A stretch of 17,837 nt of DNA. Source: a virus. Below the pieces are notes generated by a model, which saw only the letters and a list, made by a program, of their open reading frames with translations, ran no database searches and was not told where the DNA came from. The translations under genes and the position numbers were made by a program. This document shows positions 122 through 7,563 of this stretch, piece after piece; within the stretch, counting starts at the first letter, position 1; each line of letters begins with the position of its first letter. The stretch is from UHGV virus genome UHGV-0106859; one strand, written 5' to 3'.

Positions 122-1045
122 TCAGTAGTTATGTACTGAAGGAGGCAATTCTTTATTCTTAAGTCTCATCCATGCGGAAAGATTCGTTGGTCCGTCTGGC
201 TCATTAATATCAACATCTCGTGTGTGGTTTATTAAAACGTCTCTCGCCATTCCGATAACATACGAGAATTCATGACCATAGTCGTAGCATCTGCCTGAAT
301 AGTTCGATTGAATTTGTTTTAGCGCCGGATACAGTTCGCGGAATAATGCCTGTGAGCGGTTGGCATAATCCCATAACCATACAAGGCTGTTTGCTTCTTT
401 TGCAGAAAGCTCGTTGGTTTTCTTCTCTTGTTTGCCGATGAACTCACCTTCAAGTGGAACTCGAGCTGCAAGTGATAGTGCTTCGGTAAACTGCTCCTCA
501 CTGATTTCTTTGTACGAACATCCAAAATGGGATTTCAGTGACGACCACATGGTGATCATCGCCTTAGCCTGTTTTTCCTTTGGCAGAGACTGACCGCGAC
601 TCATGACGAGTTGTTTAATGGCTTCCTGCTGTTCAGTGGTGATTTTACCCGGCAACGCCTTTTTAGCTTTGCGTGGGTTAACTACATGACCTTTAGTCCA
701 GTACTCGTATAGCACATCGTCACACTCTTCTTGATACTGGATTACATTGTCGCGGATTTCAGGGCGGACTTTGTTAGGGCTGATGGTTTGCAACCAGCCA
801 TTCAGTTTACGTAAAGCAAGGCAAATCATGTTCTGCACACCGCCAACTGAAGGTATTGCGATTTCCACAATACCTTTAGCAAATCTTTGTTTTAACTTTG
901 TAAACTGTGAAGCCCAATCCATACCCATTCCCTCAACGATAGGTTTCATTGGGGTGTACGGCTCACCGTTGTGATTAACAACATAAAGCTCTGCGCCGTG
1001 GAATGGTACATTGATAGTAGATACTGCTGTTGCTATACTTTTCAT
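122..1045 (-). CDS. ant: Antirepressor (Ant-like; N-terminal AntA/AntB-type domain)
   Basis: 307-aa ORF; N-terminal region (VPFHGAELYVVNHNGEPYTPMKPIVEGMGMDW...) resembles the phage antirepressor N-terminal domain; sits in the immI-like cluster downstream of an Arc-like gene and opposite mnt; ATG start with GGA about 8-11 nt upstream. Confidence 0.75.
   Translation of the reverse strand: MKSIATAVSTINVPFHGAELYVVNHNGEPYTPMKPIVEGMGMDWASQFTKLKQRFAKGIVEIAIPSVGGVQNMICLALRKLNGWLQTISPNKVRPEIRDNVIQYQEECDDVLYEYWTKGHVVNPRKAKKALPGKITTEQQEAIKQLVMSRGQSLPKEKQAKAMITMWSSLKSHFGCSYKEISEEQFTEALSLAARVPLEGEFIGKQEKKTNELSAKEANSLVWLWDYANRSQALFRELYPALKQIQSNYSGRCYDYGHEFSYVIGMARDVLINHTRDVDINEPDGPTNLSAWMRLKNKELPPSVHNY
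1011..1039 (+). promoter_or_regulatory. Near-consensus sigma70 promoter inside the 5' end of ant, reading antisense (Psar-like)
   Basis: TTGATA (1011-1016), 17-bp spacer, TATACT (1034-1039) on the plus strand; predicted start near 1046, immediately past the ant start codon and antisense to the ant ribosome-binding region. Confidence 0.45.
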
Positions 1046-1120
1046 GTCGTTAATTCCTATGCGTGGTTTTACGATACCGAAGCCCTGACTGTTACCGCAG
1101 TTGGGGCTTCAACTTTCTGC
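1046..1120 (+). ncRNA. Candidate sar-like small antisense RNA (about 70 nt) covering the ant translation-initiation region
   Basis: Starts downstream of the promoter at 1011-1039; contains a 13-bp stem with 6-nt loop at 1079-1110 that is stronger in the plus-strand RNA (two G-U pairs that become A-C mismatches on the other strand), followed by CUUUCU. Size and placement resemble the sar RNA of phage P22 immI. Confidence 0.35.
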
Positions 1121-1312
1121 TCTATCAGTTATATCTTTCCCTTCATATACTTCACCTATATTGCTAATGCTGGCAGAACATCCAAGATGCTTGTATCTTA
1201 TGATGTCCAACACGCAGTCACTACACAGCATCCGACCTGTTTCTTTAGAGTAAATGTATGTTTGATCAGCGTCTGATTCGCTAATGCCGCAGAAACAACA
1301 TTCTTTACTCAT
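1109..1312 (-). CDS. Small cysteine-rich protein (67 aa; CCxC near the N-terminus and CxxC at 30-33; possible zinc ribbon), hypothetical
   Basis: ORF start ATG overlaps the stop of the upstream Arc-like gene (ATGA overlap at 1309-1312), suggesting translational coupling; purine-rich SD (AGAGAGGGG) upstream; occupies the slot directly upstream of ant. Confidence 0.5.
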   Translation of the reverse strand: MSKECCFCGISESDADQTYIYSKETGRMLCSDCVLDIIRYKHLGCSASISNIGEVYEGKDITDRAES

Positions 1313-1449
1313 ACCGTTATCCCCTCTCTCTTCAGGCTGTCCATCACCCGTTTAATTACTTCTGCACTAAATGAGCGACACTCTTCCTTTGCTTTCTCTT
1401 CAAGGATTTTTTCTAACTTCTCTGGCATACGCAGTGTTTTTACCTTCAT
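1309..1449 (-). CDS. Arc-like ribbon-helix-helix repressor (46 aa), below the 60-aa cutoff of the supplied ORF track
   Basis: Hand-translated: MKVKTLRMPEKLEKILEEKAKEECRSFSAEVIKRVMDSLKREGITV; the C-terminal helix (RSFSAEVIKRVMDSLKREG) resembles P22 Arc (RSVNSEIYQRVMESFKKEG as recalled); GGAGG SD 6 nt upstream of the ATG at 1449; first gene of the minus-strand immI operon. Confidence 0.65.
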   Translation of the reverse strand: MKVKTLRMPEKLEKILEEKAKEECRSFSAEVIKRVMDSLKREGITV

Positions 1450-1548
1450 TGCATCCTCCGTTGTATGTGGTACGCATACATAGTATTTAGGTACGCATTG
1501 ATAGTCAATAGATACCTACATATCCTGTGGTAAAAAATTATTCAGGAT
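1450..1548. promoter_or_regulatory. Divergent promoter/operator region between the Arc-like operon (minus) and the Mnt-like/mnt operon (plus)
   Basis: Minus strand: TTGACT (1508-1503), 17 bp, TACTAT (1485-1480). Plus strand: TTGATA (1498-1503), 17 bp, TATCCT (1521-1526). The two -35 boxes overlap within the palindrome ATTGA-TAG-TCAAT (1497-1509). Direct repeats GGTACGCAT at 1469-1477 and 1490-1498 (21-bp period) and an imperfect palindrome GTATG-n7-CATAC (1463-1479). Confidence 0.45.
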
Positions 1549-1554
1549 GTGCCG

Positions 1555-1812
1555 ATGTCTGATCGTAAGTACAAAAACCCTCAAGTGAATCTGAGGCTTC
1601 CTGTAGAGATAAAGGAACGTCTTATTGAACTGGCTGAGGCTAATTCTCGTTCATTAAATGCTGAGATGGTCGCGGCACTTGAAGCATGGACCGAAAAAAA
1701 TAAACACATTCAAGCACTAGACCTTGCAACTATAGCATCACGATTGATAGATCTTGAACATGATGTTGAGAAGTTGAAATGCATGTATAGCAACAATAAA
1801 GACGAAAGTTAG
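1555..1812 (+). CDS. Mnt-like ribbon-helix-helix DNA-binding protein (second RHH repressor, about 85 aa) with C-terminal coiled-coil extension
   Basis: N-terminus (QVNLRLPVEIKERLIELAEANSRSLNAEMVAAL) has the RHH beta-strand/helix pattern; track ORF begins at GTG 1549, but ATG at 1555 has an AGGA SD 7 nt upstream; immediately upstream of and co-directional with mnt. Confidence 0.65.
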   Translation: MSDRKYKNPQVNLRLPVEIKERLIELAEANSRSLNAEMVAALEAWTEKNKHIQALDLATIASRLIDLEHDVEKLKCMYSNNKDES

Positions 1813-1835
1813 AGATACTAACTTGGAGTGATGGC

Positions 1836-2087
1836 ATGGCTAGAGACGATCCGCACTTTAACTTCCGTATGCCTATGGAAGTAAGGGAGAAATTAAAATT
1901 CAGGGCGGAGGCGAATGGGAGATCAATGAACTCCGAGTTGTTACAAATCGTCCAAGATGCTCTATCAAAACCATCGCCTGTGACTGGATATCGCGACGAT
2001 GCAGAACGACTCGCTGATGAGCAGTCAGAGCTTGTTAAGAAGATGGTGTTTGATACGCTGAAGGATTTGTACAAAAAACCCACCTGA
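1836..2087 (+). CDS. mnt: Mnt repressor (ribbon-helix-helix; P22 Mnt-type)
   Basis: 83-aa product MARDDPHFNFRMPMEVREKLKFRAEANGRSMNSELLQIVQDALSKP... is near-identical to P22 Mnt as I recall it; GGAG SD 7 nt upstream; orientation opposite to arc/ant as in P22 immI. Confidence 0.85.
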   Translation: MARDDPHFNFRMPMEVREKLKFRAEANGRSMNSELLQIVQDALSKPSPVTGYRDDAERLADEQSELVKKMVFDTLKDLYKKPT

Positions 2088-2098
2088 CGGTGGGTTAC
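2071..2098. terminator. Bidirectional hairpin terminator between convergent mnt and the accessory 355-aa gene
   Basis: CCCACC-tgac-GGTGGG (2079-2094) with an A-run upstream (T-run on the minus strand); the mnt stop codon lies in the loop; the minus-strand gene stop is at 2101. Confidence 0.5.
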
Positions 2099-2100
2099 TG

Positions 2101-3108
2101 TTACTTGTCTGAATCATCCAGTTCGTCTGTTTTCACATCCTCAAACCTTGGATGCAGGCGATTCATTTTTGCAATAAAATCTGAATAGTCGTTAGATAGC
2201 TTCATAATCGTAACGGTTGATGACAGATGCTCTCTTAATTTTTGATATCCAATATTTGGCGTCAGCCCCTGAAACAACTTTGTACCTTTTGAAGCCTTTA
2301 CGTTCTGCTTTTTAAGCTCCTCAAGGATGTTTGGTGCCAATCGCTTGTAGACGATATCATTTGTCAAAACGCCAAAATACTGAGGGCGGAAGCGGGGATT
2401 TTCCGGCGGGTATTCTAAGCCCCTTAACCTGAAAAGCTCTTCATAATAATCAGCCGGAAATGTTGTAATATAAGGTTGAATTTCCTTTGCGACAAAGGCC
2501 TCGAGTATTTTGGCGAGCGCATCTTTTTCTCTATCTCGCTGGTACCCCGTCGCTTCATCAACAAGCGCTATTATTCCGACTTTAGCTAATGAGCGCACCA
2601 GAATTTCAGCTTTCTTGGCTGTCTCTAACTGGTTTGGCCTGGTGATAGCGCCTGCCTCTCTTGCCTTTAAATAAACATCGCAAACAAGAGGTATTATGGA
2701 TGCGTCATAACCTTCTTGGACGGAGCCAGTAATCGTCTTGTATTTAACCTTATTGATCACATCCATAACATCTTGATTTATATATTTTTTAAGGTTTGCA
2801 GCATCCATAAAAGCGGGCATATTGATCGCCCCCTCTTCTTGAGGTGCTCTACCCCCTCTTTGTGGTCGGCCAAATGCTTTAAAAACAGAAGCTTGTGATA
2901 TGATACGCCGTCCATTTTCGAGAACCGCGACATCTAATTCCGCATCACCGATCTTTAACTTTCCCTCATTCGCAGATACGGGCAATAAAGCTTTTTCTTT
3001 TTTTGCGGCAACAGCCTTTCTTGAGGATTCTTTTCTTTGCTCTGCTGTCATTTTTGCCGCGCGTGCCTTACCGCCTTTGGCCTTCCCACTAACATCATCA
3101 TTTTTCAT
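2101..3108 (-). CDS. Accessory (moron) protein of unknown function, about 335 aa, with a lysine/arginine-rich N-terminal tail; possibly a P63C-type phage domain (unverified)
   Basis: Long minus-strand ORF (track 2101-3168, but that start is a TTG inside an operator-like palindrome; first plausible ATGs at 3114/3108 with weak SD). AT-richer than the flanking structural genes. Lies between gene 16 and mnt, the slot where P22 carries sieA. Confidence 0.65.
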   Translation of the reverse strand: MKNDDVSGKAKGGKARAAKMTAEQRKESSRKAVAAKKEKALLPVSANEGKLKIGDAELDVAVLENGRRIISQASVFKAFGRPQRGGRAPQEEGAINMPAFMDAANLKKYINQDVMDVINKVKYKTITGSVQEGYDASIIPLVCDVYLKAREAGAITRPNQLETAKKAEILVRSLAKVGIIALVDEATGYQRDREKDALAKILEAFVAKEIQPYITTFPADYYEELFRLRGLEYPPENPRFRPQYFGVLTNDIVYKRLAPNILEELKKQNVKASKGTKLFQGLTPNIGYQKLREHLSSTVTIMKLSNDYSDFIAKMNRLHPRFEDVKTDELDDSDK

Positions 3109-3186: not shown

Positions 3187-3267
3187 AATTGCAAATCAGA
3201 TAATGAGGAGACTTTCTCCCCCTTGCACTGACATCATGGTATTCTGCTCAAAACTAAGGAGGTTGGT

Positions 3268-3597
3268 GTGTTAGAAATAGTCGTACTCGCTCTTGGGATA
3301 TCCTGTTGCGTACTATATGCAGGGTTAGCTGCCCTCAAGAAACAGGTTAAGGAATTAGATCGCTCACATGAAATTGATACAAAAATTGCGCGATTAACAG
3401 AAGAGAATAAACACTTAAAAAATTCCATAAGGGCACTAACTGATGACAACTACAAACTGTCCCATGCATTGGCTAAGTGGGAAATAGTAAGTTATGAAAG
3501 AATGACCGACATGATTTTTTCGTCTTATATGGCTACAAAATCTCCTGAAACATCAGGAAAAGCAATAATTGCAGCCATTGAAAAGAGAATTAAATAG
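3268..3597 (+). CDS. Small membrane-anchored coiled-coil protein (109 aa), hypothetical; candidate superinfection-exclusion or accessory factor
   Basis: GTG start with a strong SD TAAGGAGG 5 nt upstream (3255-3262); N-terminal hydrophobic segment LEIVVLALGISCCVLYAGLAAL, then a charged helical region; AT-rich; convergent with gene 16 and divergent from the 355-aa gene. Confidence 0.7.
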   Translation: MLEIVVLALGISCCVLYAGLAALKKQVKELDRSHEIDTKIARLTEENKHLKNSIRALTDDNYKLSHALAKWEIVSYERMTDMIFSSYMATKSPETSGKAIIAAIEKRIK

Positions 3598-5458: not shown

Positions 5459-6861
5459 TCCACCGTAAATTGAATGCCTGATCTTGAGGTATATGATCCA
5501 ACCTGATTCCGTGGTTCTCCTGAAGGTGTCGAATCTTGTGCTGGCGCTGCGTCAGTATTCATTGACATATACCGCTTAACGGCACTCCCCAATGATTCAC
5601 CTTTTTTAACATCCAACCCCAATATCTGACCGCCATTACGCGATTGTCCAGGGTTGCCATTCGCGCTCATCCACTCAGCTTTAAACTCATTAAACTGCGC
5701 GTTTCGTCGCTCAAGGTTTGCCATTGCATCAAGCCATCTTGCGACCGTCTCAGGGTTATCCATGTCAGTTGGCGCACCCTGTCGAACGATCTCAACGTCT
5801 TTATCCGTTGCTGGGCCGGGAGGTAGGAATTTAAGAACCTGACTGTTAACAAGGGCATTTTGGCGAATGCGCAAATCACGCAATGTCGTATCGCTTCCGG
5901 TAAGTTTTGCGAACATGTTCTGTGCGTTACCGAACAAGCCGGTCGTTGGTTTTTCTGCTCTGAACTGTTGAGCAAGCGCACTCATGGAATTGGCTGAGTT
6001 TGATGATGCTGTGGCATTGTTTACAGCCGTCTCGATGCCTTTTTCCATGTTTACTGACAGCTTAGGTGCTTCGCTAATCAACTGCTGAGCCTTTTCCTGC
6101 GCTTGCTGCATCTTAAACCCGAACTCTTGCTGATCCAGAGCCAAGCGTTGTGCTGCGATATTGTGCCCAGTCATTGCTGACTGATAGGAAAGGTTTTGCC
6201 CTCTCGCCTGAAGTGCTTCACCAGCCTGATTGCTGCGGATTGTCTCTGCCAGCCCGCCTCGGTCAATCTCACGACCAGCCATCTTGTCCTGAACATTGAA
6301 GTAATCAATCGGACCAAGAGCAGCCATTCCAAGGTGATCAACAAACTCACCAAATCCTGAAGGATTCTGCTGATACATCTGAGCAACGCTGTTAGGGTCA
6401 ACACCGACGCGAGTCAGTTCCTTGGCGTTGTTTTGCAGCCATGATTGCATTGCTTCTGGAGACGATGACGCAAGGCGTGCGCCAGCCGCTAATGTACCGA
6501 TAGAATTACGCTGGTCTTCATCAATGAATCCCATGCCTTTACGAACGGATTCAATCTGGTCTGGATATTGAGTAGCTAACTGACGCAAAGCACCGCGATC
6601 ACCAGACGCATAAGCATTAGCGTATGCCTGCTGAAATTCTTTCTGCCGCTGAGCCTGCTTTTCCTGCTGAAACACCCCTGCAATACCTGAAAGGCCTTGC
6701 AAAGCAGTCAGCCCAACATTGTTAGCGCCTGAACGCTCAATATCATTGTTCTGCCTGATAAGCTGAAGCGTATTGCCGATGTCATTTACGCTCGGAGCGT
6801 TTGAGTTGACGCCGCCGATACCAGCCAACAATCCGCCGTTTGTTCCTTGCCAAGTAGCCAT
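5455..6861 (-). CDS. Ejection (DNA transfer) protein gp20-like
   Basis: 468 aa, Gln/Ala/Asn-rich low-complexity composition typical of P22-family ejection proteins; AAGGGG SD 5 nt upstream; gene order gp7-gp20-gp16. Confidence 0.85.
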
Positions 6862-6870
6862 GATTACCCC

Positions 6871-7563
6871 TTAAAACAACGAGCCAAGCAATCCGATACC
6901 AGCACCAATGCCAGCGCCCCAAGGCGTTGATGTTCCCAAAAGGCTGGCAAGACCTGCACCGGCAATCGCACCAGACGTGCCACCGCTAATTGCAGTCTGA
7001 AGACTTGATGGTTTATTGGCATTAGCAGCGGCAAGTGCTGCGCTTTGCTGTGCAATGCTGCTCATGTTGTTGGCGTATGTCTGCCCAGCGTTTGCCTGAC
7101 CTTGCAGCGCACCAAGCCCAACGTTTGCCAGATTGTTGTAATTGCTCATCTGATTTGATAACCAAGACTGACCGAGTGTCGGCGCGATCGTAGCCAGTTG
7201 ATTGCTTGTGGCTGTCGAACCAAGTCCACCCGTCGCCTCCGCAGCAGCAAGACTCTGGTAACGAGCCTGCCCTGCAAGGTCTTTATACTGCTGAGAGTTG
7301 TAATACTGATTAAGTGCCTGCCCCTGACCTTCTAAACTGGAAAGGCTCTGAAGCTGGTTAACATACTGCTCCGCAAGAGGCGTGAACTGAGCAAGGTTTT
7401 TCATGATCGTCTGCCACTGCTGATTTTGCAGGTCTGCAGCATACTTCTGGGCTTCTGCTGCATACTTTGCGCTTTTATCAGAACTGCCACCTTTCCCGCC
7501 TTTTTCAGGGCAATAAGGTTCCTCGCCGCGCAGTTTTCTGCCCAGCTTAAATGCATATAACAT
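6871..7563 (-). CDS. Ejection protein gp7-like
   Basis: 230 aa (P22 gp7 about 229 aa as recalled); Gly/Ala-rich hydrophobic C-terminus (GAGIGAGIGLLGSLF); position between gp14 and gp20. Confidence 0.8.
   Translation of the reverse strand: MLYAFKLGRKLRGEEPYCPEKGGKGGSSDKSAKYAAEAQKYAADLQNQQWQTIMKNLAQFTPLAEQYVNQLQSLSSLEGQGQALNQYYNSQQYKDLAGQARYQSLAAAEATGGLGSTATSNQLATIAPTLGQSWLSNQMSNYNNLANVGLGALQGQANAGQTYANNMSSIAQQSAALAAANANKPSSLQTAISGGTSGAIAGAGLASLLGTSTPWGAGIGAGIGLLGSLF

Follow-up and report, generated by a model that had tools for sequence, protein, structure and literature searches.

Two predicted back-to-back promoters and three in-phase boxes in the control region of a CUS-3-like immI module

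The window analysed here, the whole 17,837-nucleotide stretch of virus genome UHGV-0106859, is part of a CUS-3-like prophage of the P22 family (Lederbergvirus), and this study deals with the 105-bp intergenic control region (1450-1554) of its immI module. Leftwards of this region lie an Arc-like gene, an open reading frame (ORF) of 67 amino acids and the antirepressor gene ant. Rightwards, the gene of a Mnt-like ribbon-helix-helix (RHH) repressor of 85 amino acids, RHH-85, is followed by a P22-type mnt gene. The module thus contains what is found in P22-type immI: an Ant protein with both P22_AR domains, the sar RNA, an Arc-family gene at the head of the ant operon and, in divergent orientation, the gene of a Mnt-family repressor. 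In a preliminary description of this DNA the intergenic stretch had been called an immI control region, a name that is justified by the P22_AR_N and P22_AR_C domains of Ant, the three Arc-family RHH proteins and sar. Positions 1050-2100 are 94.9% identical to Enterobacteria phage CUS-3 across 96% of their length, positions 1300-1840 are 100% identical to a prophage of Escherichia coli STEC346 and 97.6% identical to E. coli UTI89, and the control region with its genes shares 95-98% of its nucleotides with the 'ant moron' of the CUS-3 and UTI89 prophages. At the core of the control region (1462-1528), CUS-3 and the window are distinguished by two base differences, T1513C in a box described below (box 3) and T1461C just left of the core.

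Promoters and repeated boxes of the intergenic region

The control region was compared in approximately 100 related loci, ranging from E. coli to Photorhabdus, Yersinia, Lonsdalea and a metagenome-assembled genome (MAG) of the Cellvibrionaceae. Relatives of RHH-85 were drawn from IMG/VR (loci L007-L086) and from one genome per species (L087-L112), and CUS-3, SEN22 and three E. coli variants were added. The hosts of the relatives are Yersinia, Arsenophonus, Phlomobacter, Xenorhabdus, Photorhabdus, Lonsdalea, Chimaeribacter, Pantoea, Providencia, Moellerella and the Cellvibrionaceae MAG. Alignments were gap-free and anchored on the -35 block; they contained 39 distinct cores, while the conservation of the promoter hexamers was counted on 36 distinct cores.

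Two divergent promoters were predicted by a promoter scan and scored with a simple sigma-70 weight matrix. The rightward promoter, TTGATA-17-TATCCT (1498-1526, plus strand), reached 12.5 bits and the leftward promoter, TTGACT-17-TACTAT (1508-1480, minus strand), 14.1 bits. These are the top two scores in 1430-1570, and values of at least 10 bits occur at just 11 of 178,020 positions of the whole window. The promoters face outwards, and base 1503 is common to both -35 hexamers. The 11-bp sequence TTGATAGTCAA (1498-1508), which is the exact union of both hexamers, is near-invariant across the 39 distinct relatives; its single strong variant, TTGAATGTCAA in L074, still gives TTGAAT on the plus and TTGACA on the minus strand. 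In the rightward -10 hexamer, variation is confined to positions 3-5 (TATCCT, TATTCT, TAATCT, TACCAT, TAACAT, TAATAT), the first, second and last bases being kept in all 36 cores. Conservation that is focused on the hexamers in this way is the pattern that would be expected of real sigma-70 promoters, and the divergent promoters with abutting -35 hexamers, which had been proposed from the window alone, are supported by it. From the spacing, transcription is predicted to start at about 1473 (minus strand) and 1533 (plus strand). Since the hexamers overlap and the upstream DNA of each promoter is the core of the other, it is implausible, given the known extent of the polymerase footprint, that two polymerases occupy the region simultaneously, and the promoters probably compete. 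The predicted 5' leader folded no better than shuffled sequences (z = -0.08), and a scan with Rfam found sar as the sole RNA family, outside the control region. Hence, a hairpin-like match at 1462-1480 is read as a DNA palindrome and not as a terminator.

The second conspicuous property of the region is a set of boxes (Table 1). The sequence GGTACGCAT occurs twice with a start-to-start distance of 21 bp and has no other copy on either strand of the window, and a third box, GATACCTAC, lies in the same 21-bp register. The direct repeat reported in the preliminary description was therefore confirmed, and it turned out to be conserved in relatives and to extend to three copies. The repeat unit actually comprises 21 nucleotides, 16 of which are identical. 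When the 105-bp intergenic region was subjected to 5000 dinucleotide shuffles, 1.9% of them contained an exact direct repeat of at least nine nucleotides. Matches to the box consensus, G[GA]TA[CT][GC][CT]A[TC], were found four times within 1469-1519, three on the plus strand at 21-bp steps (starting at 1469, 1490 and 1511) and one on the minus strand that reflects the near-palindromic box 3; the other 17.7 kb contain only two, approximately 2.3 chance matches being expected for the whole window. Box pairs exactly 21 bp apart are present in 88 of 113 loci. The centre of box 2 lies at about -40.5 from the predicted rightward start. If the flanking bases are included, the boxes come close to the 10-bp palindrome TAGGTACCTA, with agreement at nine of the ten positions in box 3 (TAGATACCTA), at eight in box 2 (TAGGTACGCA) and at six in box 1 (GTGGTACGCA), which fits the binding of one two-fold-symmetric RHH dimer to each box.

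Table 1. Positions of the predicted features of the immI module in the window
Feature	Position	Strand	Remarks
ant, antirepressor gene, 307 amino acids, last in leftward operon	122..1045	-	P22_AR_N PF10547 3e-44; P22_AR_C PF10548 6e-30; annotated ant in CUS-3
sar antisense RNA over ribosome-binding region and translation start of ant	1047..1114	+	Rfam RF00262, 85.7 bits (gathering score 43), full length
67-amino-acid ORF, CxxC...CxxC, between Arc-like gene and ant	1109..1312	-	from ORF list; phrog_7150 (unknown function) 3e-50; no Pfam match
Arc-like RHH gene, 46 amino acids, first in leftward (ant) operon	1309..1449	-	Pfam Arc PF03869 2.9e-9; ribosome-binding site GGAGG at 1459-1455
Box 1, core GGTACGCAT 1469-1477	1467..1477	+	over predicted leftward start at ~1473; kept in most relatives
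-10 TACTAT, predicted leftward promoter	1480..1485	-	TACTAT or TAATAT in 30/36 cores
Box 2, core GGTACGCAT 1490-1498	1488..1498	+	in leftward-promoter spacer, abuts rightward -35; G-G-T-A-C-G-[CT]-A-T near-invariant in 39 cores
-35 TTGATA, predicted rightward (RHH-85/mnt) promoter	1498..1503	+	unchanged in 35/36 cores
GATAGTCAA, possible weak box, half a step from boxes 2 and 3	1500..1508	+	coincides with both -35 hexamers; candidate from position
-35 TTGACT, predicted leftward (arc-like/ant) promoter	1503..1508	-	unchanged in 35/36 cores
Box 3, core GATACCTAC 1511-1519	1509..1519	+	in rightward-promoter spacer, abuts leftward -35; same register: GGTACGCAT in Yersinia and Lonsdalea, GGTACGCAC in Photorhabdus; GGTACCTAA in Photorhabdus temperata, GGTATGTAC in Chimaeribacter and Pantoea
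-10 TATCCT, predicted rightward promoter	1521..1526	+	T1, A2, T6 kept in 36/36 distinct cores
RHH-85, Mnt-like repressor gene, 85 amino acids	1555..1812	+	Pfam Arc PF03869 3e-10; ribosome-binding site AGGA at 1544-1547
P22-type mnt, 83 amino acids, second gene of rightward operon	1836..2087	+	Pfam Arc 4e-30; Repressor_Mnt 7e-19; ~98% nucleotide identity to P22 mnt
Bidirectional terminator-like hairpin closing rightward operon	2077..2096		sequence scan

Between the outer boxes, the palindrome ATTGA-TAG-TCAAT (ATTGATAGTCAAT, 1497-1509) covers both -35 hexamers. It had been suggested that a single protein bound there, for instance a dimer of the Arc-like protein, switches both promoters at once. 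The 11-mer TTGATAGTCAA is indeed the most invariant block of all, P22 Arc represses both immI promoters from one operator, and GATAGTCAA sits at the place that is taken in Providencia and Moellerella by a true box, GATACCTAA, beside GGTACGCAT, so that it may be a weak box. On the other hand, the sequence is palindromic because two TTGA cores are placed back-to-back, and it is mostly a by-product of the two hexamers, hence not independent evidence of an operator. Conservation ends at the hexamer edges: the invariant block (1498-1508) is coextensive with the two hexamers, the outer base T1509 varies in four of the 39 cores, and in the relatives from Chimaeribacter and Pantoea (L102, L103) TTGCTAGTCAA breaks one arm of the palindrome with no compensating change. 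The conserved boxes outside the palindrome are left unexplained by a single site. A switch operated from this palindrome is therefore improbable, and the palindrome offers no independent support for the idea of one protein acting on both promoters.

The boxes can also be arranged in the manner of P22. In such a scheme, the Mnt analogue would bind an Omnt-like palindrome that overlies the start of the ant promoter (TGTATGTGGTACGCATACA, 1462-1480, centre 1471), the Arc-like protein would bind a long Oarc-like palindrome (1484-1522, centre 1503) and shut both promoters, and the GGTACGCAT repeat would be incidental. The positions mirror those of Omnt and Oarc relative to Pant in P22, and the left palindrome was detected as a hairpin. 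The inverted repeat centred at 1503, with arms of 18 nucleotides and 14 of 18 matches, arose in 0.26% of the shuffles, less often than the direct repeat. Moreover, its arms are more symmetric in L068 (GTACGTATTGA versus TCAACACGTAC, 10/11), and the exchange C1496T in SEN22 also raises the symmetry. The two readings are hard to separate within the window because the boxes are near-palindromic and GTAC and GGTACC are self-complementary. The relatives favour boxes 2 and 3 being direct, or individually quasi-palindromic, copies. The right arm is copied in direct and not in inverted orientation in Yersinia, Lonsdalea and Photorhabdus, and Lonsdalea has TAGGTACGCATT twice, with 12/12 matches in direct versus 9/12 in inverted orientation. 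In addition, Yersinia, Lonsdalea, Chimaeribacter and Pantoea have not kept the left arm of the palindrome at 1462-1480, the local centre of symmetry moves by about 3.5 bp in L063-L067, and the DNA-reading strand of the Arc-like protein varies while the block 1484-1522 is near-fixed. A P22-style arrangement is for these reasons unlikely, though it deserves more credit than the single central palindrome.

Conservation of the core and candidate binding proteins

Over the 67-bp core (1462-1528), the relatives are 79-99% identical to the window, as against 59-82% over the first 150 nucleotides of the RHH-85 gene and 59-70% over the Arc-like gene of these loci, and thus the non-coding DNA is under stronger constraint than the adjoining genes. 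The conserved positions of the boxes are found in the spacers of the promoters and at the leftward start, and no particular sequence is needed there for promoter function alone. Even the Cellvibrionaceae MAG contains two boxes, G[AC]TATGTAT, 21 bp apart. Four loci of Providencia and Moellerella possess a homologue of RHH-85 alone, devoid of a divergent Arc-like gene and of ant, and the promoter of this gene carries GATACCTAC, GGTACGCAT and GATACCTAA at 11- and 10-bp spacing. The occurrence of identical box types in a new arrangement argues for function and not for mere shared descent. In these loci (L091-L094, about 1410-1456), the three boxes are preceded by a LexA-box-like sequence, CTGTATACATA[CT]ACA[GA], and the arrangement possibly represents a form of this repressor-operator pair that is linked to the SOS response.

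It is conceivable that the block is no operator at all and was kept for its two promoters and as a recombination 'boundary sequence' shuffled among mosaic phages, the 9-mer repeat being the relic of a duplication. The CUS-3 record annotates 6505-6986 as 'bsq2; boundary sequence', differing alleles of the Arc-like and RHH-85 genes are joined to an identical core, which indicates mosaicism, and the probability of the 9-mer repeat by itself is not very low (p ~0.02). However, conservation reaches distant genera and includes spacer positions outside the promoter elements, and the same box types reappear in other order and spacing in Providencia and Moellerella. Besides, the three flanking RHH repressor genes need operators, yet neither P22 operator is present. 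Among the explanations considered, the absence of any operator is the least credible and very improbable.

With regard to the protein that recognizes the boxes, RHH-85 and the Arc-like protein have to be considered. The DNA-reading strand of RHH-85 is PQVNLR, and the motif YK[NH]PQVNLRL does not vary even in relatives whose overall identity has fallen to 48%. By contrast, the strand of the Arc-like protein is variable (KTLRMP, KTIRMP, KTVRMP, SSVRFP and VSVRMP). The strand of RHH-85 equals that of Arc (KMPQVNLRWP in Arc FV10). In the complex of Arc with its operator, bases are read by Gln, Asn and Arg of this strand, and these residues are thus also carried by RHH-85. Boxes 2 and 3 start with TAGG and TAGA and resemble the TAGA boxes of Arc, a similarity that may serve as a lead but is not a test. 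Beyond the reading strand, RHH-85 is of the Mnt type: its best solved relative is Mnt (1mnt, 1.7e-5), and it shares the PHROG family phrog_795 with Mnt. A single-sequence AlphaFold2 (AF2) model predicts a C-terminal helix from residue 57 to 83 with a predicted local distance difference test (pLDDT) score of about 85-91, and this helix could serve tetramerization like the C-terminal domain of Mnt. The boxes accompany a homologue of RHH-85 in all divergent relatives examined, including the Providencia and Moellerella loci that are devoid of the Arc-like gene and ant. Taken together, this indirect evidence points to RHH-85, whose dimers are the most likely ligands of the boxes.

The best solved relatives of the Arc-like protein are Arc chains (5e-4), and in RefSeq entries of E. 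coli it is annotated as Arc family DNA-binding protein. Only the exchange G1483T tracks the class of its reading strand, with exceptions, and base 1483 is a position of the leftward -10 hexamer. Candidate sites for this protein are the 1462-1480 palindrome, the -35 block (GATAGTCAA) or the same boxes, which it may bind with a different preference.

Other components and variants of the module

Most relatives are devoid of a P22-type mnt gene. Therefore, RHH-85 and the Arc-like gene are the native pair of regulators, and the P22-type mnt is an add-on. In L014, L098 and L100 a Mnt-like RHH gene is located directly upstream of the RHH-85 homologue, in reversed order compared to the window, which shows that tandem pairs of RHH repressors are reshuffled in the module. 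Phage phiv205-1 (L113, 1954-2067) reveals a third type of immI control region, with another placement of the promoters and devoid of GGTACGCAT boxes. The C-terminal half of its Arc protein resembles the Arc-like protein of the window, demonstrating that immI specificities are mosaic. Directly after the Mnt-like repressor gene, the rightward operons of phiv205-1 (2316-2852) and of E. coli Res13 (L006, 2385-2921) contain a gene for a ClpP-like protease, annotated as ATP-dependent Clp protease proteolytic subunit in RefSeq and as head maturation protease in phiv205-1.

The sar RNA overlaps the start of ant and the 3' end of the 67-amino-acid ORF, and a TG-extended promoter-like sequence, TTGATA-17-TATACT, is located upstream of it (1011-1039, plus strand). 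Since sar is of full length and preceded by this site, the antisense layer of ant control known from P22 is retained though the operators differ. The ORF itself overlaps the stop codon of the Arc-like gene (ATGA). It is unannotated in CUS-3 and missing from several relatives (L005, L006), and in phiv205-1 a different small ORF occupies its slot. An assignment of the cysteine-rich product as a ClpX-type zinc finger is unsupported, as there is no Pfam match and the RING-like similarity is weak. Just past the mnt terminator, a gene for a P63C-domain protein (PF10546, 9e-24; 2101-3108, minus strand) belongs to the variable cargo of the ant moron.

DNA similar to window positions 1300-1840 was detected in 531 of 5426 complete E. 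coli genomes, and the similarity spans 80% of its length or more in 111 of these. Among the carriers are UTI89-like uropathogens, K1 strains with CUS-3 and O104:H4, and recognizable relatives extend to Yersinia, Photorhabdus, Xenorhabdus, Arsenophonus and beyond. P22-type immI control DNA is present in 173 of the same 5426 genomes.

Regulatory model and known systems

From these data, the stretch 1462-1528 is probably the regulatory core of an immI module of non-P22 type, in which two competing promoters and three boxes for RHH-85 act with a logic similar to that of the lambda OR region. The leftward promoter would drive the Arc-like gene, the 67-amino-acid ORF and ant, the rightward promoter RHH-85 and mnt. 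The three boxes of approximately 10 bp, whose centres are 21 bp apart, would all be exposed on one face of the helix, and RHH-85 dimers bound to them may be linked through the C-terminal helix. Occupation of box 1 at the leftward start and of box 2 in the leftward spacer would shut off the ant operon in the lysogen. The silencing of the ant promoter would remove competition and thereby free the rightward promoter, from which the repressor itself is made, and possibly stimulate it. Box 3 lies beside the -10 hexamer in the rightward spacer, and binding to it would result in negative autoregulation. The Arc-like protein, the positional analogue of P22 Arc, is translated from the ant transcript and presumably exerts feedback on this region, as Arc does in P22.

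Several points weigh against this model. The structural model of RHH-85 was made from a single sequence and has a mean pLDDT of 76.8. No clean co-variation of the reading strand of either protein with any box was observed, the RHH-85 strand and the boxes both being near-invariant, and box 1 is replaced by [AG]TATGCAT in L063-L067 although the RHH-85 strand is unchanged there. In the window, boxes 2 and 3 agree at five of nine positions in direct and at six of nine in inverted orientation, which leaves a direct three-box array and an inversion around 1503 ambiguous. Conservation could be inflated by recombination, given the 'boundary sequence' label in CUS-3. In the literature searched, experimental work on this control region was not found, and a full-text search for the box sequences yielded only unrelated primer coincidences. 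Finally, adjacent dimers of Arc and Mnt are about 11 bp apart, within operators of 21 and 17 bp, respectively. While the 21-bp spacing is real, the view that it represents a typical tandem geometry of RHH dimers has to be modified: it is unlike the operators of Arc and Mnt, and Providencia and Moellerella have the boxes at a spacing of 10-11 bp.

A wider interpretation, according to which this is a widespread switch formed by a Mnt-like tetramer with the Gln-Asn-Arg head of Arc on three in-phase boxes across mutually exclusive promoters, with lambda OR logic and with P22-type Mnt acting only in trans in cross-immunity, is rather doubtful. With respect to the last part, an action in trans of the co-resident P22-type Mnt on the antirepressor of P22-type phages is a matter of speculation.

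The proposed model resembles the lambda OR region (OR1-OR2-OR3 with PR and PRM) in that a pair of back-to-back promoters holds three similar sites, located between and inside them: two belong to the lytic-side promoter and one to the promoter of the repressor, and the middle site is centred at about -40 from the start of the repressor promoter. Graded affinity, cooperativity and autoregulation of the three-site array are putative; what the sequence shows is that box 3 (GATACCTAC) differs from the GGTACGCAT boxes. Unlike lambda, where 17-bp operators of a helix-turn-helix protein are spaced at 23-24 bp, the sites here are RHH boxes of about 10 bp at 21-bp spacing, and the system controls an antirepressor and not the primary decision between lysis and lysogeny. 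The RHH proteins NikR (GTATGA-N16-TCATAC) and FitAB (8-bp half-sites 14 bp apart) place dimers about 21-22 bp apart on one face of the DNA, linked by an oligomerization domain. The 21-bp spacing over two helical turns and the predicted C-terminal helix of RHH-85 are similar to this arrangement. Beyond the RHH fold, however, there is no sequence relationship, and the boxes are direct or quasi-palindromic, form an array of three and are found at 10-11 bp spacing in Providencia and Moellerella.

The immI region of P22 with Arc and Mnt is the textbook system for RHH recognition and control by overlapping promoters. Villafane et al. described in 2008 a variable 'ant moron' and reported that CUS-3 apparently lacks arc, so that its control of ant must differ from that of P22 (PMC2629481). 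This impression is corrected by our data. The CUS-3 locus (L001) contains an intact Arc-like gene (about 3260-3400, minus strand) inside 'bsq2', and RefSeq now annotates the Arc-like ORF. The earlier statement is explained by the GenBank record of CUS-3, which leaves the 46-amino-acid Arc-like gene and the 67-amino-acid ORF unannotated. Phage Kapi1 has a mnt-arc-ant locus (PMC12922286) and was not among the DNA matches.

The module occupies the same genomic slot as P22 immI, between the DNA-transfer genes and the tailspike gene, and shares with it the P22_AR-domain Ant, sar, the small Arc-family gene leading the ant operon and the opposing Mnt-family repressor. In P22, Mnt bound to Omnt represses Pant and thereby favours Pmnt, and the logic proposed here for RHH-85 is parallel to it. 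As with Omnt and Oarc, one candidate repressor site lies over the start of the ant promoter and another inside its spacer. The P22 record shows Omnt (AGGTCCACCGTGGACCT) and Oarc (ATAGTAGAGTGCTTCTATCAT) between arc and mnt; neither Omnt (AGGTCCACNGTGGACCT) nor Oarc (ATGATAGAAGCACTCTACTAT) had a match with up to three mismatches anywhere in the window, which rules out that the control region is simply a diverged copy of the P22 operators, and it is not until about 20 bp upstream of mnt that homology to P22 sets in again. Further differences concern the promoters, which here are back-to-back with -35 hexamers sharing base 1503, while in P22 (X01916) they are face-to-face and fully overlapped, each -35 lying over the -10 of the other, and the sites, three in-phase boxes 21 bp apart instead of one 17-bp and one 21-bp palindrome. 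The maintenance repressor has the reading head of Arc, an extra downstream P22-type mnt lacks its cognate operator in the window, and the 67-amino-acid ORF is inserted between the Arc-like gene and ant. The same module thus appears in a second wiring, with other operators, another promoter geometry and a Mnt-type protein equipped with the reading head of Arc. This wiring is common in E. coli and represents a conserved yet unstudied variant of the P22 immI switch, for which specific candidate sites can now be offered that may restrain antirepressor-driven induction and cross-talk between prophages in these lysogens. It does not establish a new principle; its value is that of a well-defined natural variant with which RHH specificity and switch design can be compared to P22 immI.

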